A stretch of 64,000 bases of DNA, from IMG/VR virus record IMGVR_UViG_3300016659_000217. One strand, written 5' to 3'. The translations under genes were made by a program, and so were the position numbers. A model generated the notes under the pieces. The model saw only the letters and a list, made by a program, of their open reading frames with translations. It did no database searches and had not been told where the DNA came from. Positions 1 through 50,340 of the stretch are shown piece after piece. The stretch's first letter is position 1. Each line of letters starts with the position of its first letter. The stretch comes from an uncultured virus (IMG/VR IMGVR_UViG_3300016659_000217). Taxonomy: Duplodnaviria; Heunggongvirae; Uroviricota; Caudoviricetes.

Positions 1-582
1 ATGCGTATTTATGGATATTTCAGGGAAAATCCAAATAGATTAAAAAACTTACAGGATAGAATAAATTTAAATAAATTCGGTTATTCAATCCCATCAAATC
101 GTTTGATTATCGAGAACGTGACAGTAGAAACCTCTGTTATTTATAGAGATAAATTTATGGCTCTTATTAACCTAACATTAGAAGAAGGAGACTTACTCAT
201 AGTCAAAAGCTTTGACTGTTTGGGAAAGGATTTTAAAGAAATATACAATAGCGTTCATAGGATCTATCAAAAAAATATAAATCTCATCTGTTTAGATTAT
301 TCTAAATCAGTAATAGAAGGAAGTGCAAAAGAAAGTTTTATTCATTTTTTAAAACTATGTTTCGATTTTGAAAATAATTTCATATTTGAATCAAAAATCA
401 AACCTCTCAGCAAAAGTGTTAAAAAAGTTGGACGTCCTGAAAAATTAAATCTAAAACAACAAAAGGAAGTTAAAGATAAGTTTAAAAAAGGGTATAGCAT
501 TTACTCTATAGCAAAAGAGTACTCTGTCACTCGAACTGTTATAAATCGTATTTTAAAGAAGTCAGAAATAGAAGAAAATTAA
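1..582 (+). CDS. Serine recombinase/resolvase-family protein with C-terminal HTH; catalytic motifs degenerate
   Basis: MRIYGYFR.. start, LEEGDLLIVKSFDCLGKD (cf. GDxLxVxxLDRLGR), VGRPEKL + HTH (SIAKEYSVTRTVINRIL); the YxRVS serine is absent. Confidence 0.7.
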   Translation: MRIYGYFRENPNRLKNLQDRINLNKFGYSIPSNRLIIENVTVETSVIYRDKFMALINLTLEEGDLLIVKSFDCLGKDFKEIYNSVHRIYQKNINLICLDYSKSVIEGSAKESFIHFLKLCFDFENNFIFESKIKPLSKSVKKVGRPEKLNLKQQKEVKDKFKKGYSIYSIAKEYSVTRTVINRILKKSEIEEN

Positions 583-1002
583 CATAAATTTCAAATAACG
601 CCATTTAAAAACCTTATTTCTATATATTTTAAATATCAACAATCTCACTGATAAAATATATTTATTTAAACCATCAATTTTAAAATAAAATTATTCTAAT
701 CTTAATTAAATTCGTTGAATGGTTTTATCTTGATTCACTTCTTTAATTTTGGAAATACGTAGTAGTCCACCTACTCTCTTTATCTCCTAGATTTACCATT
801 GACACCTTCGACTGGTTAAAAAGAGCAATGTACTCATAAATAATGATCGAATAACTTTTTAAAGGTGAATTTGAGTATAACCCATTGCTCTTCTGATTTT
901 TAACTTTAAATTTTTTTTCCAGCATAATACTTGCATACTTTAATTATATTGCGTGTGTAAGAACTTTTTTCCATCAATTTGGATTTAATACTAAACTGTA
1001 AT

Positions 1003-1047
1003 TGGCAAATATGTTCAGACTCGAACTGGAGACCTCTACGATGTCAA
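1003..1047 (-). pseudogene. Degenerate 3' half of tRNA-Val(GAC); distal att site of prophage 1
   Basis: 1016-1048 is identical to 41571-41603 (CAGACTCGAACTGGAGACCTCTACGATGTCAAG); 1003-1015 aligns with 5 transitions; reverse complement reads anticodon loop TTGACAT, T-loop TTCGAG, ends CCA. Confidence 0.85.
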
Positions 1048-1286
1048 GATGAAGTCAAAACCCGACATAAGCCTTTAGAATATAACAATTTCATTGCTTA
1101 TTTTTGAGCGTATTTTAGTCACTTTCTTACCAAACTAGACCCAATAAAATCAATAATTTAGAGCATCATTTCTCTACAGCTTTTTTGGGCTTTTGCGTCA
1201 AATTACTCATAGGAATTTTGTCTTAAAATTTGGCTTATCGTCTTCGAGTATAAGATATATAAAACCGCCCTTTCAGGCGGTCATTT

Positions 1287-3564: not shown

Positions 3565-4065
3565 TTAACTTAATATTTTATTGAAGGCATAAATTATTAA
3601 TTTAGAATAACGATGGTGCTCATATGCCTCTTCAATTGTAGTTTGAGGAACTTTTGAGTGTGCATATGAATGACGCCATTGAAGTAAAGATGTATACTTA
3701 TCATTGGGATGTACTCCTCCTAATCTTTTTTGAATACGCGTTAACTCCTTTTTAAAATCTTGTTCTTTTGAGCTCGAGAAAAGTTTAAGATAATTACATA
3801 GATCATTTTTTGAGATCTTGCTATTTAACTTTTTATAATTTTCCTCAATATAATATGAAAAATCAATATGAATTGAGTCTGCATATTCAATCATAATTTT
3901 TTTCACAACATTTTCATAAATCGCACATATTGCAACTAATAATAGACCCGATAGCTCTCCTCTTAAATCAATATTTGCAGTATTAGAAATAGGAGCTATT
4001 CGATTTAAATCTCTTACAAGATTATCAATATGGTCCAGTGCTTCTTTAAGTTCCGAACGATCCAT
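3565..4065 (-). CDS. HEPN-domain protein (putative RNase effector)
   Basis: Rx4H motif WRHSYAH near the C-terminus; helical; directly downstream of the DUF262 gene. Confidence 0.75.
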   Translation of the reverse strand: MDRSELKEALDHIDNLVRDLNRIAPISNTANIDLRGELSGLLLVAICAIYENVVKKIMIEYADSIHIDFSYYIEENYKKLNSKISKNDLCNYLKLFSSSKEQDFKKELTRIQKRLGGVHPNDKYTSLLQWRHSYAHSKVPQTTIEEAYEHHRYSKLIIYAFNKILS

Positions 4066-4071
4066 GTAAGC

Positions 4072-5196
4072 TTATCCAAAATATTTTTTTGCAATTTGAA
4101 TTCTTTGCTTCAACATTGCCGTATCAGCTGTTGGCCCAATTGAAGAAGAAATAAAGTGGGGATCTAAAATTAATCTGTTGTATTGTTCAGATATCACTTT
4201 TGGATCAATACTATCTTTCTCTAATAATGCAACAAATACAGCATCAAGCATTGCTGTATTAATTAAACCTTTAGGACGGAATGGTTTTTCAATATTTTTA
4301 GAGACTAATTCAACTACTTCAACAAATTTTTTCTTAAATTTTAATGATTTTTCACAATCAAAATCTCTATTTTGATACATTGTTTTATTTAAAAAAGAAA
4401 TCATAGGTTTTTCATAAGAATCCCAATTCTTATATAGACCATATAATCGAAGAATAAGTTCAACATCCCTCTGATTTTTATGTGAAAACTTAAAACCAAG
4501 AATATTTAACCAGTTTGGATTATTATTTAAATCTTGAAGTTCTTTTACAATTTTACCTCGATATACTGCATTTCTAATTTCTTGAGGCTTCAACTGCGTA
4601 CCACCAGTATTAAGTCTCTGGAAAATATGGAATACACAATCATTACTATTATTTGGTGATAACTGTCTTATATTAATTGCTCTTAATGTAGCATTTTTTA
4701 ATTTTCGTTGATCTTTTTTATCCAAATCTTCAAATGTCTTACCATTATAATTTTGTGTATCAGACAACCCCTTGAGCCTAAATATTTTTTTACGCCCTTG
4801 TGAATCTGCTTCACCAAAATATCCATCTAAGAAATATTTAATTGACATAATACGCTGCTGCCCATCAATTATTTCTAGGACTCCTTCATCGTTAACATAA
4901 AAAAATACTTGTGGTACAGGCAATCCTATTAAAAATGATTCTACCAATCTCGAAGCTTGTTCAATCCTCCATACATATTTTCTTTGATAAAATGGAACTA
5001 TTAAATCACCATCATCTATTTGTTGTGCTAATACACCTAAAGGGGGATCTGATGGAGTAACTGCTAAATCAAATTGAACATCTGGAATTTCATCTTCACA
5101 GTCTTCTTCTACTAACTGTTCATCAATAGCCTCTTCGGCTATAGTTTGAAGTTTTTCCTCAGGAATTTGATAGTCTTGGAATTGATCTTCAGTCAT
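4072..5196 (-). CDS. DUF262 (GmrSD N-terminal/ParB-like) domain protein
   Basis: PFYQRKYVW, IIDGQQR and FQRLNTGG motifs. Confidence 0.85.
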   Translation of the reverse strand: MTEDQFQDYQIPEEKLQTIAEEAIDEQLVEEDCEDEIPDVQFDLAVTPSDPPLGVLAQQIDDGDLIVPFYQRKYVWRIEQASRLVESFLIGLPVPQVFFYVNDEGVLEIIDGQQRIMSIKYFLDGYFGEADSQGRKKIFRLKGLSDTQNYNGKTFEDLDKKDQRKLKNATLRAINIRQLSPNNSNDCVFHIFQRLNTGGTQLKPQEIRNAVYRGKIVKELQDLNNNPNWLNILGFKFSHKNQRDVELILRLYGLYKNWDSYEKPMISFLNKTMYQNRDFDCEKSLKFKKKFVEVVELVSKNIEKPFRPKGLINTAMLDAVFVALLEKDSIDPKVISEQYNRLILDPHFISSSIGPTADTAMLKQRIQIAKKYFG

Positions 5197-8323: not shown

Positions 8324-8350
8324 AAGAAAGCCCTTACATAGGGCTTTCTT
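8324..8350. terminator. Terminator hairpin, homologous to 9847-9871
   Basis: AAGAAAGCCCT-TACAT-AGGGCTTTCTT. Confidence 0.65.
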
Positions 8351-8359
8351 AATTCACAC

Positions 8360-8513
8360 ATTGCACAGATACAGTGACATAAACAAATGTAAATAGTTAC
8401 AGTGAAACCATGATAGTGCGCTGAACCCTATCATGGTTTCAAATAAGATATTGATGCTCAATGTAAAATTTCAATAATTTTGCAGAAGATGTATTATGTT
8501 GGTTTTAGGGAAA
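8360..8513 (+). repeat. 154-bp direct repeat, copy 1 (mini-lipoprotein gene 3' remnant + 13-bp hairpin + dif-like sites)
   Basis: Aligns over the same length with 8881-9034. Confidence 0.85.
8477..8504 (+). other. Degenerate pdif-like site, XerC/XerD orientation
   Basis: ATTTTGCAGAA-GATGTA-TTATGTTGGTT vs consensus ATTTCGTATAA-N6-TTATGTTAAAT. Confidence 0.55.
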
Positions 8514-8532
8514 CTAAAATAAAAGGGAAAAT

Positions 8533-8865
8533 ATGGACTCAGAGGAATTAGCGAAGCTACTCAAAAAAGGAATTATTAACGAAAACCTAGAAATCTATAA
8601 AGGATTGTTCACTGACTACTCACCATCAGAAATAAAAGATCCTTATTTTATTGATGCAATAAGTTTTTTTAATACTTTACCAGATGAACATAAGCGAATT
8701 TTTTTCTCAATATTACAACAAGTAATGATTGATTCAATTAGTAACGTATTAGGTGTCATTGATGGAAGCTCAAGTTTATCAGAGCACGATGGTGATTTTT
8801 CTTTGCTATATGAGGGTAAACCGCTTGAATATTTACAAGATTATTTTTTATCTCAATTTGAGTAA
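8533..8865 (+). CDS. Small acidic hypothetical protein, immunity-like
   Basis: 110 aa with RBS; DPYF...IDSISNVLGVIDG motif recalls proteins found downstream of polymorphic toxins (by memory, unverified). Confidence 0.55.
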   Translation: MDSEELAKLLKKGIINENLEIYKGLFTDYSPSEIKDPYFIDAISFFNTLPDEHKRIFFSILQQVMIDSISNVLGVIDGSSSLSEHDGDFSLLYEGKPLEYLQDYFLSQFE

Positions 8866-8880
8866 AAACATAACCTCTAT

Positions 8881-9034
8881 ACTGCACAGATACAGTGACA
8901 TGAACAAATGTAAATGATCACAAAGAAACCATGACAGCGCACTGAACCCTATCATGATTTCATATAAGATATTGATGCTCAATGTAAAATTTCAAGATTT
9001 TTGCAGAAGGTGTATTATATTGATTTTAGGGAAA
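8881..9034 (+). repeat. 154-bp direct repeat, copy 2
   Basis: Aligns with 8360-8513. Confidence 0.85.
8998..9025 (+). other. Degenerate pdif-like site, XerC/XerD orientation
   Basis: TTTTTGCAGAA-GGTGTA-TTATATTGATT; GGTGTA is a common pdif spacer. Confidence 0.55.
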
Positions 9035-9064
9035 TTTAAAAGTATAAGAACAAGGTGACAATAA

Positions 9065-9547
9065 GTGAAAATGTTCCTGTTAGTATTGGGTGTTGGGCTT
9101 GTAGCCCTTACAGCTAGTTATTTTTGGGATGAGAAAAAATCTGAGTTATATCCAAAAGAATTTGTTCTCGATTGGGGAAACAGAATGAAAAGTTCACCGA
9201 ATGGTGGACCTGGAAGAAATTGTTTCCCTACCAATTTTTCAACTTCTGAATACCCTGAATTAAAAGAAGAACTATTAGAAGCTAAAAAACTCAATATGTT
9301 TCATCCAGATCAATCAGGAAATGGACTTTTAAATGTTCCTCTAAAAAACTGTTTTAGTGAAGCAAAACTCGTTGAATTAAAGGTTGATAAGTCTGCGAAT
9401 ATGGCTTGGGCTGTATATCGTTGTGAGAAAGATGGAATGGGGCTAGAGGTTAAATTATCTAGCTATGATAAATGGTGTAGCTATACTACATATTTAACAA
9501 AATGGAATTTTCCTATAGGAAGATATACCCCTATTTCTATGCCCTAG
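9065..9547 (+). CDS. Exported/membrane-anchored hypothetical protein with 4 Cys
   Basis: GTG start, N-terminal hydrophobic signal. Confidence 0.6.
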   Translation: MKMFLLVLGVGLVALTASYFWDEKKSELYPKEFVLDWGNRMKSSPNGGPGRNCFPTNFSTSEYPELKEELLEAKKLNMFHPDQSGNGLLNVPLKNCFSEAKLVELKVDKSANMAWAVYRCEKDGMGLEVKLSSYDKWCSYTTYLTKWNFPIGRYTPISMP

Positions 9548-9567
9548 ACTTTTCACTTTAGTCGTAC

Positions 9568-9595
9568 ATTTAGCATAACGGCTGTTATACGAAAT
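9568..9595 (-). other. Near-consensus pdif site (XerD/XerC on + strand)
   Basis: ATTTAGCATAA-CGGCTG-TTATACGAAAT; 21 of 22 arm positions match ATTTAACATAA-N6-TTATACGAAAT. Confidence 0.9.
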
Positions 9596-9614
9596 AAAAA
9601 AGGAAGGAAAGGCA

Positions 9615-9785
9615 GTGGGAGATTTTTTAATATTTATTGGGTTAATCATCAGTATTGTAGGGACGTTTATTGGTCCTCATGTATTAAGTGAAAAAGTAAA
9701 TAATCATATGGATGCAAAGGCAGCAAGCTTCTTAGGAATGTTACCTGGTGTATTAGTTATGTTTGTTGGTTCTTTCTTTAAATAA
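9615..9785 (+). CDS. Unannotated 56-aa two-TM protein (MGDFLIFIGLIISIVGTFIGPH...VGSFFK)
   Basis: Strong RBS AAGGAAGGAAAGG, GTG start, open frame to TAA at 9783-9785. Confidence 0.6.
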   Translation: MGDFLIFIGLIISIVGTFIGPHVLSEKVNNHMDAKAASFLGMLPGVLVMFVGSFFK

Positions 9786-9823
9786 AAAACCCTATAGCTA
9801 TCAAGTATATCTTCAGAGTGAGT

Positions 9824-9850
9824 ACTTAACATAAATCTCTTATACGAAAA
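9824..9850 (-). other. pdif-like site with 5-bp spacer (XerD/XerC on + strand)
   Basis: ACTTAACATAA-ATCTC-TTATACGAAAA. Confidence 0.7.
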
Positions 9851-9871
9851 GCCCTCAATGAGGGCTTTCTT
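9847..9871. terminator. Terminator ending the late/lysis operon
   Basis: AAAAGCCCTC-AAT-GAGGGCTTTCTT. Confidence 0.7.
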
Positions 9872-9971
9872 AATTCACACACTGCACACATACAGTGACA
9901 TGAACATTTGTCGAAATCGAATGCGCTGTGCAGCCTGAAAGCAGGATGCACAGCATTAAAGCTTTGATCAT
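9870..9971 (-). CDS. Unannotated 33-aa lipoprotein MIKALMLCILLSGCTAHSISTNVHVTVCVQCVN, last gene of the lysis cassette
   Basis: ATGA overlap with the endolysin stop codon; lipobox LSGC; stop codon abuts the terminator. Confidence 0.75.
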   Translation of the reverse strand: MIKALMLCILLSGCTAHSISTNVHVTVCVQCVN

Positions 9972-34966: not shown

Positions 34967-36160
34967 TTGGTTTATAAAATGTCTAATGAAGAATTAAATT
35001 TAACAAAGCTAGTTGATACTTTAGAAGATGAAAAAACTGGTGCTCATGCTCGTAAAGGCTTTGCATACCAAGATTGGTGGGCCGCTCATAAGTCATTTGA
35101 ACTACTGAGTAAGACTAATAGTAAGGATTTTGCTATTGGTGTTGAAATTAAAGAAGATGTCATTGTGATTGATTCATTAGAAAACCCATCTCAATTTGAA
35201 TTTTATCAAATTAAAAAAAAGGAACCCAGTAATTGGTCTATTGCAGGTTTATTAAAGGCTGAAAAAAAAGTATCAGCACCTGAGAAATCTACTCTTTCAA
35301 AGCTTTACTCGCGATATATTGATTTCAAAACTGATGCAACAAATTTATATTTTGTATCTAATGCTCAATTGCAAATAGAAGTGCAAGATAAAAATGGAAA
35401 GAAAAAGTTTTTTTTACATAATTCTAATTTTGCTTCAGATGTCGATATAACAAACCTTTCAAAAATTGAGAAAAAAATTAAAACAGAATTAAAGTTAGAA
35501 AATAATGAACCTATTAAATTTGACCGTTTAAACTTTCAAAGATCAGATATCAGTGCTTTATCTCCTGACATGTCTGTTATTGGAGCAGTCACAGGCTTAA
35601 ATGAGGAAAATAGGTTTCCTTTTAGATTAAATAATATTTCTTCTACATGTAGATTATTAGCCTCAAAATTCCAAAACTTAGGAATGAATACAGATTTTGC
35701 AAGCAATATTTCACAACTTCAAAAAAGATGTTTAACCAAAATAGAATTATTAGAATTTTTAAAAACTCTTAATGAAAATTTTCACTCTCCAGAAGACTAT
35801 TTAAAAGAAGGCATAAAACAATTACAATCTGAAAGTTATCCTTTTCCTAGATTAGAACTACTAAAAGATGAATCTAAACAGTTATTAGTCCATATTACAG
35901 ATAGAACAAAATTAGAAATTCAAAATTTATTCAACCAAGCAAATTTACTGTATATCACTAATAAAAATTTATATTACAATCTAAATTCACTTACTGAAAT
36001 GATAAATGCTTTTTCTCAAGACTTAACTTCAGTCAAGAATGATATAAACTTCGATATAAACTATCTAAAATGTATCACCTTACTCTTCATTATGTCTAAA
36101 GGAGAAATATACAATGAAAGATATTTCAACATACCAACTACTCAGACTGATTCGAAATAA
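34967..36160 (+). CDS. lmuA: Lamassu LmuA-like effector, DUF4297/Cap4-type nuclease
   Basis: GAHARKGFAYQ...EDV...FYQIKKK...WSI PD-(D/E)xK-type motif. Confidence 0.75.
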   Translation: MVYKMSNEELNLTKLVDTLEDEKTGAHARKGFAYQDWWAAHKSFELLSKTNSKDFAIGVEIKEDVIVIDSLENPSQFEFYQIKKKEPSNWSIAGLLKAEKKVSAPEKSTLSKLYSRYIDFKTDATNLYFVSNAQLQIEVQDKNGKKKFFLHNSNFASDVDITNLSKIEKKIKTELKLENNEPIKFDRLNFQRSDISALSPDMSVIGAVTGLNEENRFPFRLNNISSTCRLLASKFQNLGMNTDFASNISQLQKRCLTKIELLEFLKTLNENFHSPEDYLKEGIKQLQSESYPFPRLELLKDESKQLLVHITDRTKLEIQNLFNQANLLYITNKNLYYNLNSLTEMINAFSQDLTSVKNDINFDINYLKCITLLFIMSKGEIYNERYFNIPTTQTDSK

Positions 36161-36174
36161 ACGTAAAGGCTTAA

Positions 36175-37875
36175 ATGATGAAAAAGAAAGTCACTTTTTT
36201 AGAACTCAACTTACTATCAAAGAAAGAACAGAAAGCTCTTCAAGTGAATCTAGATTATCAAAAAATAATTCTATACGGGAAAAATAATACAGGAAAGTCG
36301 GTAATAATCCGCCACATATTTTGGTGTATGGGCTTAAACCCTGTTAATACATTTTCAGATAAATGGGATCACAATATTACGGGGATGCTTAAAGTAAATT
36401 TCGATAGAACTGAATATTGTTTTTACAGAAATAAGGATGATAGATATTTATTTCAAGGTAAAAATTTACTATATAGCTCTAATAAAAATAGTGAATGGAA
36501 TTCAATATTAAGTATTTTTTTTGATTACCCATTAAAGTTACAACTAAAACAAAATTTGGTTGAAAGTCATGTTGGTTTAGAAAGTTTGTTAGTTCCATAT
36601 TTTATAGAACAAGATACAGGCTGGGGGCTTAATTGGAGTGGTCCTTTTACTAGTTTACTACGATTTAAAGATTTTTATAAAGAAACATTATCAAACTTTA
36701 CAGGTTATAATTCTATTGAATCTATTTCTATCAAGCAACAAATAGGATCATTAAAATCAGACCTCACAAAACTAAGCTCAGAACTTAAAATATATGAAGA
36801 ATCATTTAACAAAATAAAAATAGAAACTACATATATTCAACCTCGAATAGATAAAAACCAATTTCGAAAGGAAATAAAACAATCAAGCAATGAGCTAAAG
36901 TCATTAATTATAAAGCAAAAAAATCTTAAAAACAGCTTATCAGATTTAATTCAGAAAAAATTTAAACTTAAATCAATTTTAAAATCAAGTATAAGATCTT
37001 TTAATGAAATTGCTCTTGATATTAACTTTTTAGAAGAAAATATTGAAATTGAATGTCCTACTTGTGGAACATTGCACAAGAAAACATTGGAAGCATCAGC
37101 ATCATTAGAGTTTGACTACACTAGTCTAGACAACAATATTCAACAATTGAAATCTGAAATATTAGAAATAAACAGAAAAATTATCCCTCTTAATTCAAGT
37201 TTAGCTGCTATTGAAAATGAAATAGACAATTTCAATAGAACTTTACAAACTTCTAAAAACAATGTTTCCTTTCAAGATATTATTGATATAGAAGCAAATA
37301 AAAAAATCTCAAAGTCATTCGAAAAAAATACGAAAAGAACAAATACAGATATTAAAGTTTTGCAAAATAAAATTGATTTAGCAGAAAAACAAGTAAAAGG
37401 CTTAGAATCAAAAGAAGTTAAGAAAGAAATTAAAGAACTTTTTGCAACTAAATTGAAATATAACTTCAATCAATTAAATATTCCATTCAATGGCAAAATA
37501 AGTCAGATACATACTAGACCTAATATAGGTGGTGGCAGCTCAAATCCACGCGCTATTCTAGCTCTTCACATGTCATACCTCGAACTAAGTTTAAATAAGA
37601 CTAAGCTACCATTATTCCCTTTTGTTATTGATACACCACAACAGAATGGACAGGATATGAACAATTTATCAAATACATTCAGCCACTTAGAAGATATTAA
37701 CTTTACACAACTTATTGTTGGTTCCGAGATACTCCCAAGTCAAACAAATTTAAAAAATTATAAAATTTTAGAATTCGAGAATGAGTATTCTGTACTAAGT
37801 GCAGAAGAATATTCTGATGTTTCAAAATTACTCAATCAATTTGATGTGATTCTGAACAAACATTTAGAGGCTTAA
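36175..37875 (+). CDS. lmuB: Lamassu LmuB-like SMC/Rad50 ABC ATPase
   Basis: Walker A GKNNTGKS, coiled coils with central CPTC zinc hook, GGGSS signature, Walker B FVIDTP. Confidence 0.8.
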   Translation: MMKKKVTFLELNLLSKKEQKALQVNLDYQKIILYGKNNTGKSVIIRHIFWCMGLNPVNTFSDKWDHNITGMLKVNFDRTEYCFYRNKDDRYLFQGKNLLYSSNKNSEWNSILSIFFDYPLKLQLKQNLVESHVGLESLLVPYFIEQDTGWGLNWSGPFTSLLRFKDFYKETLSNFTGYNSIESISIKQQIGSLKSDLTKLSSELKIYEESFNKIKIETTYIQPRIDKNQFRKEIKQSSNELKSLIIKQKNLKNSLSDLIQKKFKLKSILKSSIRSFNEIALDINFLEENIEIECPTCGTLHKKTLEASASLEFDYTSLDNNIQQLKSEILEINRKIIPLNSSLAAIENEIDNFNRTLQTSKNNVSFQDIIDIEANKKISKSFEKNTKRTNTDIKVLQNKIDLAEKQVKGLESKEVKKEIKELFATKLKYNFNQLNIPFNGKISQIHTRPNIGGGSSNPRAILALHMSYLELSLNKTKLPLFPFVIDTPQQNGQDMNNLSNTFSHLEDINFTQLIVGSEILPSQTNLKNYKILEFENEYSVLSAEEYSDVSKLLNQFDVILNKHLEA

Positions 37876-38987: not shown

Positions 38988-40130
38988 ATGGCTCCTCGAG
39001 GTCGCAAGTCGGGGAACTTGGACTTACCTCCCCATGTCGAAGTCGACAAAAAGCCCAATGGCACCATGTACTTCCGCTACCTCCTACCAAACGGACAACG
39101 TAAGTCACTGGGTAAAGACCGTAACGAAGCCATTAAGGCAGCTCAGGCACTTAACACCGTGCTTGAGCGTAACCCAGACATTGTGTCTAAAATTCTATCT
39201 TCAGTAGAAAAAGCACATAAGCAAAGTCATATTCCAAACTTTGGCCAAGCATTGGATGAATATGAAAAGCTGCACTTACCCAAGAAGAAACTTGCTAAAA
39301 ACACCTTGGTGAATGTCACGGCGAACATTGGTAAATATCAGGATATGTGGGGGCAGTTCTATTGCACTGACATTACCCTACTCATGATTTCTGAATACCT
39401 GAAACAGCAGACCGACTTTCAGGCAGAAAAGCACCGTTCACAGCTTATCGACATTTGGAAATACTTTGTGGCCAACGGCTGGGCACCTGAAAATATTGCA
39501 GAGAAAACCTTAAAGCCGATACGACCAGAAAAAGTCAGAACGCGACATTCCAACGAATCTCTGGAAATTGTAAAAGCTGTTTGTCCGCCTTGGTTAAAAC
39601 TGGCGATTGATCTGGCATTGCATTCTATTCAACGGCGTGCCGATCTGGTGGTGATGGAGCGTTCAAGCATTAACATCAAAGACAACACCATGACCGTACT
39701 GCAGCATAAGTCGCTGAATTACGACAAGCCTGTGTTTATTGAAGTGGATATGCATCCTGAGCTACGGGAAGTCGTATTGCAGTGTATAGAGCATTCTATG
39801 CGACTACGTTGCCCTTACCTGATTGCAACGCGACCAGACCGTATTAACGAGCAAATCCGTAATGCGAAACTGCATCCTTTTGCTGTAACGGAGGATCACA
39901 TTACTAAGCAGTTTAAAAAGTATCGGGACCTGTCTGGTGCGTATGATCATTTAGAACTAAACCAAAGACCATCGCTGCATGACTTACGTGCCTTAGGTAT
40001 TTATAACATCACGCAGAAGTATGGAAAGAAGTACGCGCAGGCACTGGCTGGCCATGCGACTGTGAAGATGACAGATCACTATTTAGAGGGTCACGAAGCA
40101 CCTAAACCAGAGCGGATTAGCTATCGTTAG
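38988..40130 (+). CDS. int: Tyrosine integrase with N-terminal arm-binding domain
   Basis: QRRADL (R), LHDLR (HxxR), LAGH, DHYL (Y). Confidence 0.92.
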   Translation: MAPRGRKSGNLDLPPHVEVDKKPNGTMYFRYLLPNGQRKSLGKDRNEAIKAAQALNTVLERNPDIVSKILSSVEKAHKQSHIPNFGQALDEYEKLHLPKKKLAKNTLVNVTANIGKYQDMWGQFYCTDITLLMISEYLKQQTDFQAEKHRSQLIDIWKYFVANGWAPENIAEKTLKPIRPEKVRTRHSNESLEIVKAVCPPWLKLAIDLALHSIQRRADLVVMERSSINIKDNTMTVLQHKSLNYDKPVFIEVDMHPELREVVLQCIEHSMRLRCPYLIATRPDRINEQIRNAKLHPFAVTEDHITKQFKKYRDLSGAYDHLELNQRPSLHDLRALGIYNITQKYGKKYAQALAGHATVKMTDHYLEGHEAPKPERISYR

Positions 40131-40178
40131 GCATACCAATTAAGCTGATGCTTTCATTACATGGATCATCAGCTTTTG

Positions 40179-40206
40179 ATTTCATATAATCGCCAGTATG
40201 TTAAAT
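40179..40206 (+). other. pdif-like site XerC/XerD
   Basis: ATTTCATATAA-TCGCCA-GTATGTTAAAT; 20 of 22 arm matches. Confidence 0.85.
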
Positions 40207-40222
40207 AGGCTCAAAAATCTTC

Positions 40223-40651
40223 TTAAATACCAATAACTGTAATTCCATCTTTTTGATTTTCATTATCTTTTAAAAAATTAATTATTTCACTGATCATATT
40301 TAAGACTTTAGGTTTAAAAATTAAAAAATTTTCCTCAAAAAACTTTGTTTCCTCTCTGAAGATAAGTTTCAATTTTTTGTCAGATTTATTACTTTTAGCT
40401 ATAAAACTATGAAAATAGTATAAATCTTTAACAATATCTCCAATGATTTCAGAACCAATATAGGTATTTCCCCAATGAAAATATTCCACCTTATTCCTAT
40501 TAAAAAAGTGTTCAACCAACGAAAATGCAACTTCATTAATTACTATCGAATTTAGACAACTTCCATTTTTATTTAGATCACTAGGAATAATTTGAATATT
40601 TAAAGATCCAATTAAACCTGAAACGGATTTAACATTGAAATCAATTTCCAT
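40223..40651 (-). CDS. Hypothetical protein, single-gene dif-module cargo
   Basis: AT-rich 142-aa ORF between inverted dif-like sites. Confidence 0.6.
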   Translation of the reverse strand: MEIDFNVKSVSGLIGSLNIQIIPSDLNKNGSCLNSIVINEVAFSLVEHFFNRNKVEYFHWGNTYIGSEIIGDIVKDLYYFHSFIAKSNKSDKKLKLIFREETKFFEENFLIFKPKVLNMISEIINFLKDNENQKDGITVIGI

Positions 40652-40675
40652 ATTAATTACCTTTTATATTTTTAA

Positions 40676-40703
40676 AATTAACATAATACACCTTATAATA
40701 AGT
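40676..40703 (-). other. pdif-like site XerD/XerC
   Basis: AATTAACATAA-TACACC-TTATAATAAGT. Confidence 0.75.
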
Positions 40704-40749
40704 CAAAAATTATAGATGTAAGTAACTATTTTTACTATATTTTTTTAAA

Positions 40750-40776
40750 ATTTCGTATAACGCCATTATGCTAAAT
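40750..40776 (+). other. pdif-like site XerC/XerD with 5-bp spacer
   Basis: ATTTCGTATAA-CGCCA-TTATGCTAAAT; the neighbouring gene's stop codon lies in the XerD arm. Confidence 0.8.
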
Positions 40777-41260
40777 GGGGCTTCAAAAGCCACTCATGGA
40801 TGACATTAGTTTGATGTTGTATTGCATCAATTAAATGAGGTGAATTTTCGATTGTCCATGTTTCATCGCACCAGTCACAAGCATCATAGAGGCCACCTAT
40901 CCATTCTGGATAGTAAGCTAAGTTATTTTTAAGTCCTCTTGGAGCATCAAGGAACCCACACTCTAAATTACTAAAAATTCTACATAGTTTAAGAGGGCTT
41001 AAATTACCATTCTTATAGTCAGCTAAAACACCTAGAAAGAATGTCGCTGCCAATATTTCAGCTTCTAAACAATTGGATGAAAATTCAGAATCTTTGGTCT
41101 GTATTACATTTAGTAATAGCGATTCATAATTAGGATATAACTCTAGTAACTCAATTGGAATGTTTTCATTTTTCTCAACATATTCAATTAATTTTTTTAT
41201 CCTTTCCGAGTAAGAATATTCTCCATAATAAAGCTCTACGTATAATTTTTTTAATGTCAT
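40766..41260 (-). CDS. Hypothetical acidic protein, single-gene dif-module cargo
   Basis: 164 aa; GLYDACDWCDE motif; bracketed by dif-like sites. Confidence 0.6.
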   Translation of the reverse strand: MTLKKLYVELYYGEYSYSERIKKLIEYVEKNENIPIELLELYPNYESLLLNVIQTKDSEFSSNCLEAEILAATFFLGVLADYKNGNLSPLKLCRIFSNLECGFLDAPRGLKNNLAYYPEWIGGLYDACDWCDETWTIENSPHLIDAIQHQTNVIHEWLLKPHLA

Positions 41261-41293
41261 TGATTAATCCAGATGATTCATTATTTTCTCTAA

Positions 41294-41321
41294 AACTAAC
41301 ACAATACACCTTAAATGTTAC
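41294..41321 (-). other. Degenerate pdif-like site XerD/XerC
   Basis: AACTAACACAA-TACACC-TTAAATGTTAC; same spacer as the 40676 site. Confidence 0.55.
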
Positions 41322-41470
41322 ACGGCTTTGTTTAGTCTCATTTAACCCGAAAACAGAAAAAATGTCCCGATGAAATAAGAATAGCTGTCCAAGTAGTTAT
41401 TGATTTAGCTACCGTTAGTCATCGTTTGTAAGTTTAAATGGGCGAGTTTTCCACATTGGGGAATTACGCC

Positions 41471-41503
41471 ATTCCCCGAAAATACCCCGAATATTCCCCG
41501 AAA
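41471..41503 (+). repeat. Three tandem 11-bp repeats ATWCCCCGAAW; probable integrase arm-type sites of prophage 1
   Basis: ATTCCCCGAAA-ATACCCCGAAT-ATTCCCCGAAA, ~55 bp from the att core. Confidence 0.65.
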
Positions 41504-41507
41504 ACAA

Positions 41508-41532
41508 AAAGCCCACTTTTGAAGTGGGCTTT
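41508..41532 (-). terminator. Phage-supplied terminator downstream of the tRNA 3' end
   Basis: AAAGCCCACTT-TTG-AAGTGGGCTTT with adjacent A-run. Confidence 0.7.
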
Positions 41533-41557
41533 AATGTGTTGAAATATCAACGAATTT

Positions 41558-41602
41558 TGGTAGGTATATCCAGACTCGAACTGGAGACCTCTACGATGTC
41601 AA
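41558..41602 (-). pseudogene. 3' half of tRNA-Val(GAC); att junction between prophages 1 and 2
   Basis: Reverse complement TTGACATCGTAGAGGTCTCCAGTTCGAGTCTGGATATACCTACCA; no 5' half or D-arm upstream. Confidence 0.9.
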
Positions 41603-41632
41603 GGGGGTAAACATTTATTATATATCAAATAC

Positions 41633-43368: not shown

Positions 43369-44019
43369 ATGTGCGCAAACTTTGAAGCGATCAGAAAGAA
43401 TCGTGCATTCCTTCTAGATCTCCCTGAGCCTGACCAATTGGAGTTCCCAGAAGACATATTTCCTAACTATCCCTCCCCTTTGATCTTTTCCAATGACGGC
43501 AAGATTGAATGGAGATCGGTTAATTTTGGTATGATTCCCAAATGGGCAAAGGAAAAGAGTTTCGGTAAATACACATACAATGCCCGGACTGAAACGGTCG
43601 CTGAGAAACCAAGTTTTAGAGAGGCTTGGCATAAGTCTCAATTTGGTTTAATCCCTGTCGAAACCATCTTTGAACCTAAATACATAGATGGAAAATCGCA
43701 CTGGTATGGGATTGCACGTGAGGATGGTATGCCTTTTACCGTGGCAGCCATATACGAGAATGCAGTAATCGATGGAGAGCAAATCCGATCGATGAGTATG
43801 CTCACCATCAATGCTGACCAACACCCCTTCATGAAGCAATTCCATAAGCCTAATGATGAGAAGCGCTCGATCATCGTAATCCCTGACGAATATCGCGAAG
43901 AATGGCTGAATTGCAACTTTAAAGAGGCTCATGAGTTCTTCTTTGAAATGCAAGATGAGTTCATCACCTTCCCTAAATCCCGCTTATCCGAAAATGGTAC
44001 TCAACCTAATTTAATTTGA
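43369..44019 (+). CDS. SOS response-associated peptidase (SRAP/YedK/HMCES)
   Basis: N-terminal MC, YNARTETVAEKPSFR, FH..EKR. Confidence 0.9.
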   Translation: MCANFEAIRKNRAFLLDLPEPDQLEFPEDIFPNYPSPLIFSNDGKIEWRSVNFGMIPKWAKEKSFGKYTYNARTETVAEKPSFREAWHKSQFGLIPVETIFEPKYIDGKSHWYGIAREDGMPFTVAAIYENAVIDGEQIRSMSMLTINADQHPFMKQFHKPNDEKRSIIVIPDEYREEWLNCNFKEAHEFFFEMQDEFITFPKSRLSENGTQPNLI

Positions 44020-44126
44020 AGGCCCATTGATTATCCACAGCTTTTAAATTTGAAATTTAATTTGCCACCGACTATCCTAAAAAAAGAGTTCAGTTCCAAA
44101 CACGCCTCGTAGCGTAGGAGTCAAAC

Positions 44127-44762
44127 ATGTCAAAGAAACTACCGATCTATTTCTCGGATGACGTCTGGTCATTCCTTCAAACACTTATGGGCCCAGATGG
44201 TGCCCCAAGTCCGACAGTCAATGCTGTATTTGAAAAAATACAAAAAGAGCATGAGCTGGGTTCTAAGTTTGATCTTAAAGAAATTTCAATCAAAACGCGT
44301 CTCGAAATTCCTTCTGCATTGGAACGGTTTTCTGCTGGTCCTGCTTTTGGTACCAAAGACCATATCGATAAGTCGATCGACTTAAATGACTTCCTCATCT
44401 TCAATCCAATATCCACGTTCATGGGACGGGTTGATAGTGAGTCTATGCTTTACGCTGGCTTTGAAATTGATGACCCGTTCTTGGTCGATAAGAGCATTAC
44501 AGCACAGCATAGAGATATCGTTTTAGCCCTCATCGATGAGCGTGAAATAACACTTAAGCGGTTAATGATGACCGCTAAGATGTCAAAACAAGAAATCAAA
44601 GAAATGTTTGGGGATGAAGACTATGAACTTCCCCCTATTTGGCTAAGAGCTGAAAACCCAGCTTACGAGCATATTATTCCTAAAGACAGCCAGTCTATCT
44701 CTATCCAAGGGGTTGTTACCTTCAACCTAAAACAATTTTATAGACGCTCTACCAGCAAATAA
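44127..44762 (+). CDS. umuD: UmuD-like S24 peptidase with N-terminal extension
   Basis: SAG cleavage site, SESM Ser, TLKRL Lys; upstream of umuC. Confidence 0.8.
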   Translation: MSKKLPIYFSDDVWSFLQTLMGPDGAPSPTVNAVFEKIQKEHELGSKFDLKEISIKTRLEIPSALERFSAGPAFGTKDHIDKSIDLNDFLIFNPISTFMGRVDSESMLYAGFEIDDPFLVDKSITAQHRDIVLALIDEREITLKRLMMTAKMSKQEIKEMFGDEDYELPPIWLRAENPAYEHIIPKDSQSISIQGVVTFNLKQFYRRSTSK

Positions 44763-44774
44763 GAAGTATAAAAA

Positions 44775-46070
44775 ATGAAAGCTGAAAATCGTATATTCGC
44801 GTTAGTCGACGTGAATAACTGCTACGTCAGTTGTGAGCGTATTTTTAATCCGTCCCTCAATAATCGTCCAGTCATTGTTCTCTCGAGTAATGATGGTTGT
44901 GCCGTTGCACGCTCCCAAGAAGCCAAAGACATTGGTATTAAAATGGGTGTGCCGGTATTCCAAATTCAAGACATCATCAAGAAGCATGACGTGCAGGTGT
45001 TCTCAAGCAACTTTGCCTTATATGGGGCCATGTCACGTCGTTTTATGACTTTACTGGGGATGTATGTTGCACCAGGAGAGCAAGAGATTTATTCAGTCGA
45101 TGAATGCTTCTTGGATCTCACCAGTTATGAGCATTTATTTGATTTAACCGACTATGCCCAAGACATTCGTAAGACTGCTTGGCAGTGGCTCACTTTACCC
45201 TGCTGTGTGGGTATTGGCCGCTCAAAGACCGAAGCAAAAATTGCCAATCATTTAGCTAAGAAGAACAAGTTTTTTAATGGGGTATGCAATCTGGTTGATA
45301 TGGACCCATGTTCTACTGAAGCTATGCTTGCACAAATCGATGTTGGTGAGGTTTGGGGTGTTGGTCGTCAGAATTCTAAAAAGCTCAATGTGATGAATAT
45401 CCGTACCGTTTTGGATTTGGTTCAGGCGCATCCTGCGGAAATTAAAAAGCAGTTCAGTATTGTCATGGAAAAGACGGTACGTGAACTAAATGGGATCTCA
45501 TGCATCGATCTAGAGAGTGATGCCCCAGCTAAAAAGCAAATTATCAGTAGTCAATCTTATGGCCAACCGATTTACGACATTGAAAACATCAAATCCTCAG
45601 TGCGCTTATATATTCAAAGAGCCGTCTCAAGGCTTCGTGATGATATGTCTTTATGCAAGATGATTGGGGTTTTTATTCAGACTGGTCGCTTTGATAAGGC
45701 TGAGAAATACACACCTTACGTCATTATGCAGTTGCCGGAGCATACCGATGATGTTTTAGAGATTACCCGTATAGCGATGCAGGCCATTGATGACATCTTT
45801 AAACCCGGCTTTAAGTATAAAAAGGCAGGCATCATCCTGATGGAGATTATACCCAAAACTAAATTCTCCCCTGACCTATTTACCGATTATTCGCTACAGA
45901 TTAAGCGAGCCAAGCTCTCCGACGCCTTAGATCACATCACTCACAAGTATGGCAAGAACACTTTGTCATTGGGCTTGTGCGGACGCAAAGATGAGCACTG
46001 GCAAATGAATCAAGAACGCAAATCCCCGAACTATTTAACAGAATGGAATGAACTCTTTAGAGTGAGATAA
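44775..46070 (+). CDS. umuC: Y-family DNA polymerase V catalytic subunit
   Basis: LVDVNNCYVSCE, SSNDGC, YSVDECF, C-terminal SPNYLT. Confidence 0.93.
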   Translation: MKAENRIFALVDVNNCYVSCERIFNPSLNNRPVIVLSSNDGCAVARSQEAKDIGIKMGVPVFQIQDIIKKHDVQVFSSNFALYGAMSRRFMTLLGMYVAPGEQEIYSVDECFLDLTSYEHLFDLTDYAQDIRKTAWQWLTLPCCVGIGRSKTEAKIANHLAKKNKFFNGVCNLVDMDPCSTEAMLAQIDVGEVWGVGRQNSKKLNVMNIRTVLDLVQAHPAEIKKQFSIVMEKTVRELNGISCIDLESDAPAKKQIISSQSYGQPIYDIENIKSSVRLYIQRAVSRLRDDMSLCKMIGVFIQTGRFDKAEKYTPYVIMQLPEHTDDVLEITRIAMQAIDDIFKPGFKYKKAGIILMEIIPKTKFSPDLFTDYSLQIKRAKLSDALDHITHKYGKNTLSLGLCGRKDEHWQMNQERKSPNYLTEWNELFRVR

Positions 46071-49500: not shown

Positions 49501-50016
49501 CTACTGTGCTCCCATACATTTCGAATGGCGCTCAACCTGCCGAGTCCAAACGCCATAACAGTTATTGGATCGTACTGAGCAATCGCGTTTTGCCACGTAC
49601 TTCCACTTGAGTAATGCATCACAAGCCTGCTTATACTTCCCTGCTTTTAGATTCCGCAGCATGGAGGATTGATTCCAATTGGCTTGACCAAAGTTATAGG
49701 TGAAGTCGAGATATACGTCATACTCGACTTGAGATAACTTCACGCCCTGAAGTGACTTACGAAATGGAATTTCATCTTTGGCCACATGTGCTTTAGCCCA
49801 TTCCAATGCGGTTTTACGTGAAATTGGAGGATCGGTCATTTTAATCTTGGTGCCATCAGGCTTGGTTGTTGATCCGATACCTTGAGTCACAACACCACCC
49901 GTATCTTTGTAGGGAACCGGCACATTTCCCTCTTTATTTTCTAAATTCCAAAAAAAAGCAGCCGAAGCTGCTAATCCCATTGCCAAGTATTTCGTTTTAT
50001 TCGACATTGCATTCAC
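49501..50016 (-). CDS. SAR-type endolysin, GH24
   Basis: N-terminal Ala/Gly-rich SAR segment; EG...YKDTGGVVTQGIG. Confidence 0.85.
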   Translation of the reverse strand: MNAMSNKTKYLAMGLAASAAFFWNLENKEGNVPVPYKDTGGVVTQGIGSTTKPDGTKIKMTDPPISRKTALEWAKAHVAKDEIPFRKSLQGVKLSQVEYDVYLDFTYNFGQANWNQSSMLRNLKAGKYKQACDALLKWKYVAKRDCSVRSNNCYGVWTRQVERHSKCMGAQ

Positions 50017-50278
50017 CCTTCGCTTTACTCAACGCAATTTGATGTAGTTGCTCGGCACGTTTATTTTCTTGGCGCTTGTAATACCAATTAATCAAGAAGC
50101 TCATAAAGCTCACTAATAGGCCTGCAATCGCCACCAGCAAGCCAATTGCTGTAATTGGATCTAAACCCAGTAACTTCCCCGACAAGCCAGCAATTGATCC
50201 CCCCACTGCTGTTTTGGTTGAAATAGATGTAACTGCAGCACTCGCTTCGGCAATTGCTTGCCCTGTTGTTTCAGACAT
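49997..50278 (-). CDS. Holin/pinholin
   Basis: TM segments, INWYYKRQE tail; overlaps the endolysin; start placed at ATG 50278. Confidence 0.75.
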   Translation of the reverse strand: MSETTGQAIAEASAAVTSISTKTAVGGSIAGLSGKLLGLDPITAIGLLVAIAGLLVSFMSFLINWYYKRQENKRAEQLHQIALSKAKGECNVE

Positions 50279-50340
50279 TTCGCCCCCTAATTTTTGGCAA
50301 TAAAAAAGCACCCTTTTGGGTGCCATTCACTTTTCTAAAC

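Follow-up and report, generated by a model that had tools for sequence, protein, structure and literature searches.

Several resistance and adaptive genes of Acinetobacter travel mainly on dif modules. These have so far been treated as a feature of plasmids, on which Blackwell and Hall reportedly described them in 2017. In the accessible text of a later study, plasmids of the Rep_3/OrfX type are given as their natural location, sites with like spacers are those that recombine, and a model of cointegrate formation followed by resolution is proposed for plasmids; in A. baumannii, pdif sites are bound by XerC and XerD, and recombination at them depends on XerC in vivo (Ambrose, Xiao and Hall 2026, PMC13141974). 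Away from plasmids, the accessible portions of two further papers describe additional chromosomal dif sites and dif module islands (Mindlin et al. 2019, PMC6449649; Wang et al. 2026, PMC12907356). Neither assigns such arrays to phage genomes, the latter text having 0 occurrences of 'phage', 'prophage' or 'integrase'. The former cites one Proteus prophage in which a XerC/XerD site had received an OXA-58 dif module (Girlich 2017, cited in PMC6449649). Here we analysed 64,000 nt of an uncultured virus (IMG/VR record IMGVR_UViG_3300016659_000217), a stretch that we refer to as the window. Within it, we regard the interval 40135-41404 as likely to be a dif-module array of the Acinetobacter plasmid type, carried by a lambdoid temperate phage of tRNA-Val between the integrase gene (int) and the arm region of attP (Table 1).

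Read from left to right, the array consists of site S1, a D module with a 142-aa gene, site S2, a 46-bp mini C module, site S3, a D module with a 164-aa gene, site S4 and a non-coding remnant derived from a plasmid. The plus-strand spacers of S1, S2, S3 and S4 are TCGCCA, TACACC, CGCCA and TACACC. As is the rule for dif modules, flanking sites are inversely oriented, and D and C modules alternate when the phage backbone is counted as a C module. Mismatches were counted against the arms ATTTCGTATAA (XerC) and TTATGTTAAAT (XerD) quoted in a first-pass annotation of the same DNA. That annotation had proposed four dif-like sites of the 11-6-11 form at 40179, 40676, 40750 and 41294, in the strictly alternating orientation C/D, D/C, C/D, D/C. 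All four positions are correct and the alternation is as claimed, and the 11-6-11 form holds for two of the four. S1 and S2 fit the 28-bp pattern, differing at 2 and 4 of the 22 arm positions. S3 has a spacer of 5 bp and therefore is not 11-6-11; metagenome contigs covering this site show no indel. Moreover, the plus-strand XerD arm and spacer of S2 (AATTAACATAA TACACC) equal, in every letter, the D/C site of the msr(E)-mph(E) module as printed in Table 3 of the accessible part of PMC12907356.

Chance expectation was obtained by scanning for sites with up to 4 mismatches and a 5- or 6-bp spacer, the background being 30 AT-rich Markov sequences of 64 kb each. The window holds 6 pdif-type sites, against a mean of 0.23 (maximum 2) in this background. 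For 40131-41556 alone, 3 sites were observed and 0.01 expected, with at least one site appearing in 3 of 300 simulations; a stricter pattern gave an expectation of 0 in 100 shuffles. S4 scores no better than background, 16 matches of its quality (5+3 mismatches) occurring in the interval against 13.45 expected. No recognisable arm is present where its XerC arm should lie, and the alignment with the Acinetobacter loci L003 and L004 loses similarity exactly at the expected start of that arm. We nevertheless count S4 as the relic of a site, recognisable by homology alone, because it is identical to the XerD arm and spacer of S2 in 21/23 positions and lines up with the good sites that L003 and L004 have upstream of the homologous gene. 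The comparison with an AT-rich background that the first-pass annotation had called for thus places S1-S3 far above chance and S4 within it. Judged from their sequence, S1-S3 are real pdif-type sites, each with no more than 4 mismatches in 22 arm positions.

The two cargo genes lie in a stretch of 30% G+C, compared with 41-45% for the phage body, and both are on the minus strand; the earlier description of two single AT-rich genes bracketed by sites is accurate, as is its observation that a stop codon lies inside a XerD arm. The XerD arm of S3 (ATTTAGCATAA) is made up of the last codons of the 164-aa gene, HLA-stop, with the stop codon (40766-40768) as its first triplet. Unrelated cassettes share a leader, TTAGAGAAAAT, immediately after the class-B XerD arm and ahead of the start codon (window 41255-41345 and 40646-40735, and loci L003, L004, L051 and L052), which may be a common expression signal of D modules. 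Promoter-like sites in the array were not above background (6 against 8.9 in shuffles) and therefore we claim no promoter. The terminator scan made no call for the inverted repeat behind int, which was read from the sequence, and an Rfam search returned nothing near the gathering score.

The placement of the array inside a prophage, between int and att, had likewise been anticipated and is confirmed. The att repeat comprises 47 nt with an exact core of 33 nt, and in a close relative (L019) the junction on the int side is an intact tRNA-Val. A metagenome contig (X5) runs from 41603 into the sequence of window 1049 onward, either an attP-type junction or a tandem copy, and therefore the array is placed inside the phage genome. 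The copies of ATTCCCCGAAAA that follow the array are probably, from their sequence and conservation, arm-type Int binding sites of attP. A prophage lying to the right of 41603, as the orientation of the tRNA fragment had suggested, was ruled out, since the int-side junction of L019 restores tRNA-Val.

Table 1. Positions in the 64,000-nt window of the cassette array, its sites and the features that surround or resemble it
Feature	Position	Strand	Description
Far-end att copy	1002-1048		Bounds the prophage of ~40.5 kb
Second array, same prophage	8327-9911		Behind lysis genes; bracketed by a 64-nt repeat, 8327-8390 / 9848-9911
Weaker pdif-type sites	8477-8504, 8957-8983, 8998-9025		
pdif-type site	9568-9595		0+1 mismatches, strong
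pdif-type site	9824-9850		1+1 mismatches, 5-bp spacer, strong
int	38988-40130	+	380 aa, lambda type with arm-binding domain (Pfam PF00589 + PF09003); backbone neighbour of the array
18-bp direct repeat, left copy	40117-40134	+	TTAGCTAYCGTTAGKCAT; spans the final int codons and stop
Inverted repeat	40142-40177	+	AAGCTGATG...CATCAGCTT, then T residues; behind int; kept in relatives that carry S1
S1	40179-40206	+	C/D; ATTTCATATAA-TCGCCA-GTATGTTAAAT; 1+1 mismatches; entry point of the array
Cargo gene 1 (P0001)	40223-40651	-	142 aa; D module, XerD arms inside; no family match
S2	40676-40703	-	D/C on the plus strand; minus-strand reading ACTTATTATAA-GGTGTA-TTATGTTAATT; 3+1 mismatches
Mini C module	40704-40749		46 bp, between S2 and S3
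S3	40750-40776	+	C/D; ATTTCGTATAA-CGCCA-TTATGCTAAAT; 0+1 mismatches; 27 bp, 5-bp spacer
Cargo gene 2 (P0002)	40766-41260	-	164 aa, all-helical; D module; stop overlaps S3
S4	41294-41321	-	Decayed/half site; XerD arm TTGTGTTAGTT and spacer GGTGTA kept; 5+3 mismatches
Plasmid-shared non-coding piece	41314-41409		95 bp, between S4 and the right 18-bp repeat
18-bp direct repeat, right copy	41405-41422	+	16/18 identical to the left copy; plasmid homology ends here
Two copies of ATTCCCCGAAAA	41471-41504	+	Kept in L019, L024 and L029; as CCCCCAAAATA repeats in L022
att copy adjoining int	41557-41603		3' part of tRNA-Val(GAC)

The content of the array differs between closely related phages. Searched with the integrase, viral contigs yielded 14 loci of 71-100% identity, 9 of which were informative; the window itself (L018) and four loci that end at or before the int stop (L020, L023, L026 and L028) were left out. 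In all five relatives whose integrase is 95-100% identical (L019, L021, L024, L025 and L029), an S1-type site with the spacer TCGCCA lies behind the same hairpin, and L019, L021 and L025 cease to match the window at the final bases of S1 (40204-40206). The window and these five relatives carry six different first cassettes behind S1. In the order given above, the cargo of the relatives is a 178-aa protein, a DUF4062 / HEC-01B-like gene that runs off the contig end, a 149-aa protein, a 220-aa protein and a pair of 174 and 97 aa. Distal sites are present in L024 and L029, the latter also having a 45-bp mini C module; L019 has no distal site. Two other relatives, L022 (integrase 86% identical) and L027 (74%), pass from int straight into the arm region with no site and are empty, whilst L030, with a remnant of int, and L031 have no site. 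Aligned to the empty L022, the 1288 bp between the two copies of the 18-bp repeat form an insertion. The comparison of int-att intervals suggested in the first-pass annotation thus found an interval that is not invariant, since the relatives carry different cassettes. A shared S1 with different cassettes in 5/5 close relatives, and two more distant relatives that are empty, fit the loading and shuffling of cassettes at the sites that it had envisaged.

Moreover, both cassettes recur elsewhere at 88-92% DNA identity, the contexts being chromosomal arrays and, in another prophage, the region behind the lysis genes. Cassette 2 (window 40741/40751-41309) is 88.1% identical to its copy in L003 (A. 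amyesii) and 89.6% identical to that in L004 (Acinetobacter sp. ANC 4204), and good sites flank each copy, the arrays in question holding other modules as well. The neighbouring module of L003 encodes an Imm26-domain protein (PF15428, E = 5.6e-15), and those of L004 a secreted-looking Sel1-repeat protein and a small membrane protein. Close homologs of P0002 end in HLA-stop or HLT-stop, which is the XerD arm read as codons; nine P0002 homologs of 51-58% identity lie in core-gene contexts without flanking sites. Homologs of cassette 1 were found in 15/247 genomes of the genus. The two closest P0001 homologs, of 89% and 84% protein identity (L051 and L052), are bounded by sites. At the DNA level, cassette 1 (window 40186-40696) is 91.6% identical to the L051 module, which adjoins the holin and lysozyme genes of another prophage, and 89.9% identical to that of L052, where the array lies between thiamine-phosphate synthase / aminotransferase genes and an oxidoreductase gene. 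This homology ends inside S1 and S2, the match to L051 ending at 40186. Eleven further loci with P0001 homologs (31-62%) gave no strong site, with one 5-mismatch match beside L038. In both cassettes, homology thus ends at the sites: the modules are discrete units in different contexts, with breakpoints inside S1-S4, as is characteristic of dif modules.

The relationship with plasmids is confined to the junctions. A blastn search with 40100-41420 matched 118 records among 72,556 plasmids, all of them from Acinetobacter and all in only two short pieces: the S2-S3 junction, which accounts for 15/25 of the matches listed, and 41314-41409, which accounts for 10/25. As the latter piece, searched alone, matched 10 records, about 108 Acinetobacter plasmid records match the junction. 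Identity over the S2-S3 stretch is 75-82%. The 41314-41409 piece is 84-85% identical to 10 Acinetobacter plasmids, 7 of them conjugative, and occurs also in L024; in CP033533.1 it lies ~300 bp upstream of a recombinase gene. S2 aligns with plasmid pZS-2 of A. lwoffii, which is laid out as a C/D site, a D module, a D/C site (GGTGTA), a mini C module of 46 or 26 bp and a C/D site. The spacers of pZS-2 alternate as CAGCCA, GGTGTA, AGCTA (5 bp), TCCGTA, CAACCA and GGTGTA, and its counterpart of S3 likewise has a 5-bp spacer. In these respects, the sequence of the window array describes the same architecture as the plasmid array of pZS-2. Two spacer classes run through the window, its relatives and the plasmid, nnGCCA-like at the 3' end of the cargo genes and GGTGTA-like at the 5' end. 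The 85 open reading frames of the window matched no Rep family in Pfam (orfX was not searched for), and no Rep_3/OrfX backbone was found. In arms, spacers and architecture, the assignment to pdif-type sites and dif modules of the Acinetobacter kind made by the first-pass annotation is borne out.

A second array is present in the same prophage, behind the lysis genes. Its two strong sites have the same orientation, and degenerate sites also occur within two junction repeats of 158 nt (8362-8519 and 8883-9040), upstream of genes of 110 aa and 160 aa. A module encoding a 56-aa membrane protein (window 9570-9824) is 94% identical to L004 8858-9111. At viral loci with a related lysozyme gene, we counted 5 sites in 190 kb downstream and 0 in 303 kb upstream. 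Searching viral contigs for the site pattern gave at least 110 stretches, most of which were left unclassified; many of them lie on short contigs, which may represent filamentous phages or be plasmid-like.

Contigs assembled from metagenomes give soft support for cassette variation. Contig X7, with a side of 38 letters, joins 40124 to 41423 and represents the empty form. In each of four runs the word depth per bin of the backbone and S2 junction (~13-1960) was above that of the cassette bodies (5-42). For the bin with S2 and the mini C module (40665-40735), the summed contig word depth reached 882 and 1530 in runs X3 and X9, against 7-20 for the cassette bodies, and therefore the junction of S2 and the mini C module is a high-copy sequence in wastewater and plastic-associated metagenomes. 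The joints 40206>40669/40673, 40697>41314/41324 and 40697>41399/41403 would fit variants in which the cassettes are different or fewer; having sides of 21-29 letters at 92% likeness, they were not counted as evidence.

A dif-module array on a phage backbone is thus genuine, and phages seem, from the sequences compared, to take part in the exchange of dif cassettes. Catalysis by Xer proteins at these sites is what we infer. In the mechanism that we propose, host XerC and XerD would act on a site in the phage and a like-spacer site of another replicon and so fuse the two into a cointegrate, which would then be resolved at a second site of the other spacer class to leave a new D module and a mini C module in the phage. 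The whole backbone of the circular phage genome would be the counterpart of the C module formed by a plasmid Rep_3 backbone. Recombination of S1 with S3, or of S2 with S4, would delete a cassette, because these pairs are direct repeats with like spacers. The cargo genes would be expressed as morons. More broadly, and as a tentative proposal to which we give rather less confidence than to the array itself, phages may constitute a third natural backbone of dif modules. Here the circular genome would serve as C module, host XerCD would bring in, remove and exchange D modules at two hot spots for morons (between int and attP, and behind the lysis genes), and lysogeny and virions would carry modules between chromosomes, prophages and, via shared site classes, plasmids, with a D module and mini C module pair as the unit of transfer.

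Several observations weigh against our reading of the array and its mechanism. A tblastn search with both cargo proteins gave no match in the 72,556 plasmids and therefore lends no support to a flow of these cassettes from plasmid to phage. Of the route of exchange between plasmid, phage and chromosome put forward in the first-pass annotation, the plasmid leg is thus left unsupported, with only the junction and the 95-bp piece shared, and the recurrence of the cassettes in chromosomes and in another prophage stands. The 18-bp repeat around the whole 1288-bp block points to a different first insertion event; as Xer recombination offers no explanation for such a repeat, the block itself would have arrived in another way. 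The 5-bp spacer of S3, the loss of the XerC arm of S4 and the lack of distal sites in some relatives (L019) mean that parts of these arrays are probably no longer recombinogenic. Behind related lysozyme genes, a site was found in only 4/73 viral loci with at least 300 bp downstream. Furthermore, L018, identical to the window across 8402 bp, is not independent of it, and most joints in metagenome contigs have sides of <30 letters at 92% likeness, for which other organisms or repeats are possible sources.

The function of the cargo bears on a further claim, that the genes are immunity-like and the array an analogue of the recombinase-associated acquired interbacterial defence (rAID) arrays. P0001 and P0002 gave nothing meaningful in Pfam (E up to 10), NCBIfam or PADLOC, which leaves that analogy unsupported for these two genes. 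The AlphaFold2 model of P0002 is a helical bundle with a predicted local distance difference test (pLDDT) score of 86.9, for which Foldseek against the PDB returned no match at E <= 0.001; the best hit of a VIA-align wide search was ClyA at Z 8.8, within the range that is generic for helical bundles. The P0001 model is poor (pLDDT 45.2). A profile search with P0002 collected 117 representatives, and 0/93 family members scanned had a Pfam match. Four remote P0002 homologs are in mixed contexts, with a small HNH gene, a Mrr-like gene and a tyrosine recombinase. One remote homolog, in a metagenome-assembled genome of Verrucomicrobiota (L016 8619-10213), is the first gene by a divergent tyrosine recombinase (Phage_int_SAM_4 + Phage_integrase), in an integron-like layout. 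That the cargo nevertheless consists of orphan immunity genes against interbacterial toxins, making the array a functional rAID analogue, we consider fairly unlikely. In its favour, both cargo proteins are small and stand alone, P0002 having a helical-bundle fold, the neighbours in L003 and L004 include Imm26 (PF15428) and a Sel1-repeat protein, and the language-model leads for P0001, themselves weak, include a cluster with Imm70 in 23% of members (score 0.93). Set against this are the absence of a family match for either protein or for the P0002 family in Pfam, distant P0002 homologs that have a tautomerase gene on one side, mfd on the other and no adjoining toxin gene, and cargo of other relatives that points to phage defence (the DUF4062 / HEC-01B-like gene of L021).

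Cassettes could also be swapped by RecA-dependent homologous recombination, with the sites, the leader TTAGAGAAAAT and the mini C module acting as short portable homologies and the Xer sites carried along as inherited passengers. Unrelated cassettes have ~50 conserved nt in common where the class-B site and leader lie, the S2-S3 junction is a high-copy repeat in metagenomes, and arrays still differ where some sites have decayed, all of which such recombination would accommodate. It would not account for breakpoints that fall inside 28-bp sites on both sides of both cassettes, nor for spacer classes that are consistent (nnGCCA-like at gene 3' ends, GGTGTA-like at 5' ends), and XerC/D recombination at pdif sites is documented for plasmids in the accessible text of PMC13141974. 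We therefore judge this explanation improbable.

Less probable again is that the phage once picked up a piece of plasmid or chromosome in which pdif sites happened to be present, leaving the array as an inert moron region in which no cassettes are loaded. Such a capture would suit the 18-bp direct repeat that brackets the whole block, the plasmid-derived non-coding remnant at the block end, the decay of S4 and the decayed or lacking distal sites of some relatives. Six different first cassettes behind the same S1, among phages with integrases 95-100% identical, and a second array at another moron position of the same phage, with one module common to L004 at 94%, leave it very little room. Lastly, the idea that the sites are chance look-alikes in AT-rich DNA has practically nothing left to it: S4 by itself scores at background, whereas for S1-S3 it is already refuted by 3 sites observed against 0.01 expected (0 in 100 shuffles with the stricter pattern) and by their homology to plasmid and published sites.

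The prophage that holds both arrays encodes cargo, lysis, tail, head (capsid, portal), terminase, Q, cII, cro, cI, a Lamassu pair and int. The Lamassu-type pair at 34967-37875, between cI and the int region, comprises a LmuA-like protein with a Cap4 nuclease domain (PADLOC E = 2.4e-43) and a LmuB-like protein (E = 5.6e-98). In the AT-rich cargo region by the left att copy, a HEPN RiboL-PSP protein is encoded beside a protein with a GmrSD N-terminal domain (3565-5196), a probable defence pair. Just outside that att copy, window 1-582 encodes the C-terminal part of a serine recombinase (resolvase + HTH_7) at 26% G+C. Two prophages are present in tandem at tRNA-Val(GAC), the second running from 41604 on and past the window end (64000), with SRAP, UmuD and UmuC (43369-46070), lysis genes (49501-50326) and tail genes. 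Its part within the window has no strong pdif-type site. Among the matches listed for viral contigs, its relatives L146, L182, L238 and L205 have paired pdif-type sites by lysis, cargo or umuC-like regions, and in L146 a 1.4-kb module lies between two sites of the same spacer, GCTCTA. There is no intact tRNA within the 64-kb window, and a blastn search of the array interval against 50,697 phage records gave no match.

Comparison with described systems places the locus next to, and partly outside, several of them. In the elements known as integrative mobile elements exploiting Xer (IMEX), such as CTXphi and similar filamentous phages, host XerCD integrate the whole genome at chromosomal dif. 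The window shares with these a phage genome with dif-like sites, and differs in having its own integrase, a tRNA-Val site and a 33-nt core, its Xer sites bounding internal cassettes; integration of the IMEX kind was not found here. Integrons and the rAID arrays of Bacteroidales consist of single promoter-proximal accessory genes with recombination sites between them and an adjoining tyrosine recombinase gene. An array of accessory genes with sites between genes, next to a tyrosine recombinase gene, is likewise found here, but the sites are dif-like rather than attC, and the neighbour is a lambda-type integrase (PF09003) with its own att, unrelated to the cassette sites. As AT-rich accessory genes at int-att and behind lysis genes, on the strand opposite to their neighbours, the cassettes resemble phage morons; unlike the usual morons, their boundaries are defined recombination sites common to plasmids and chromosomal arrays, which gives a way into the mechanism by which phages acquire some of their morons.

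The first-pass annotation had considered the locus the best candidate for an undescribed system. It is not a new system, because both plasmids and chromosomes are known to carry dif modules, and PMC6449649 cites one case of insertion into a prophage. That Proteus case, as far as its citation there goes, is alike in having a dif module within a prophage and differs in being a single resistance module in another genus, with no variable multi-cassette locus across a phage lineage. Our literature search, which covered openly accessible texts and neither subscription papers nor supplements, found no variable dif-module locus in an Acinetobacter phage lineage. With the chromosomal dif module islands the window shares arrays away from plasmids, and both of its cassettes occur in such arrays (L004 and L052), whereas its own array occupies a defined moron position in a phage genome, with contents that change from one related phage to another. 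Variation of the pdif-bounded cassettes between near-identical phages, together with cassettes common to chromosomal arrays and another prophage, would add phages to the replicons that exchange modules, and six allelic states at one site provide a natural system in which Xer-dependent cassette movement can be tested. The closest likeness is to the plasmid dif modules, with which the array has in common identical arms and spacers, alternating sites and modules, discrete recurring units and two spacer classes. It departs from them in one site with a 5-bp spacer and one without a XerC arm, in cargo without a match in the plasmid collection and, above all, in its backbone, which is a temperate phage of ~40 kb at tRNA-Val and not a Rep_3 plasmid.

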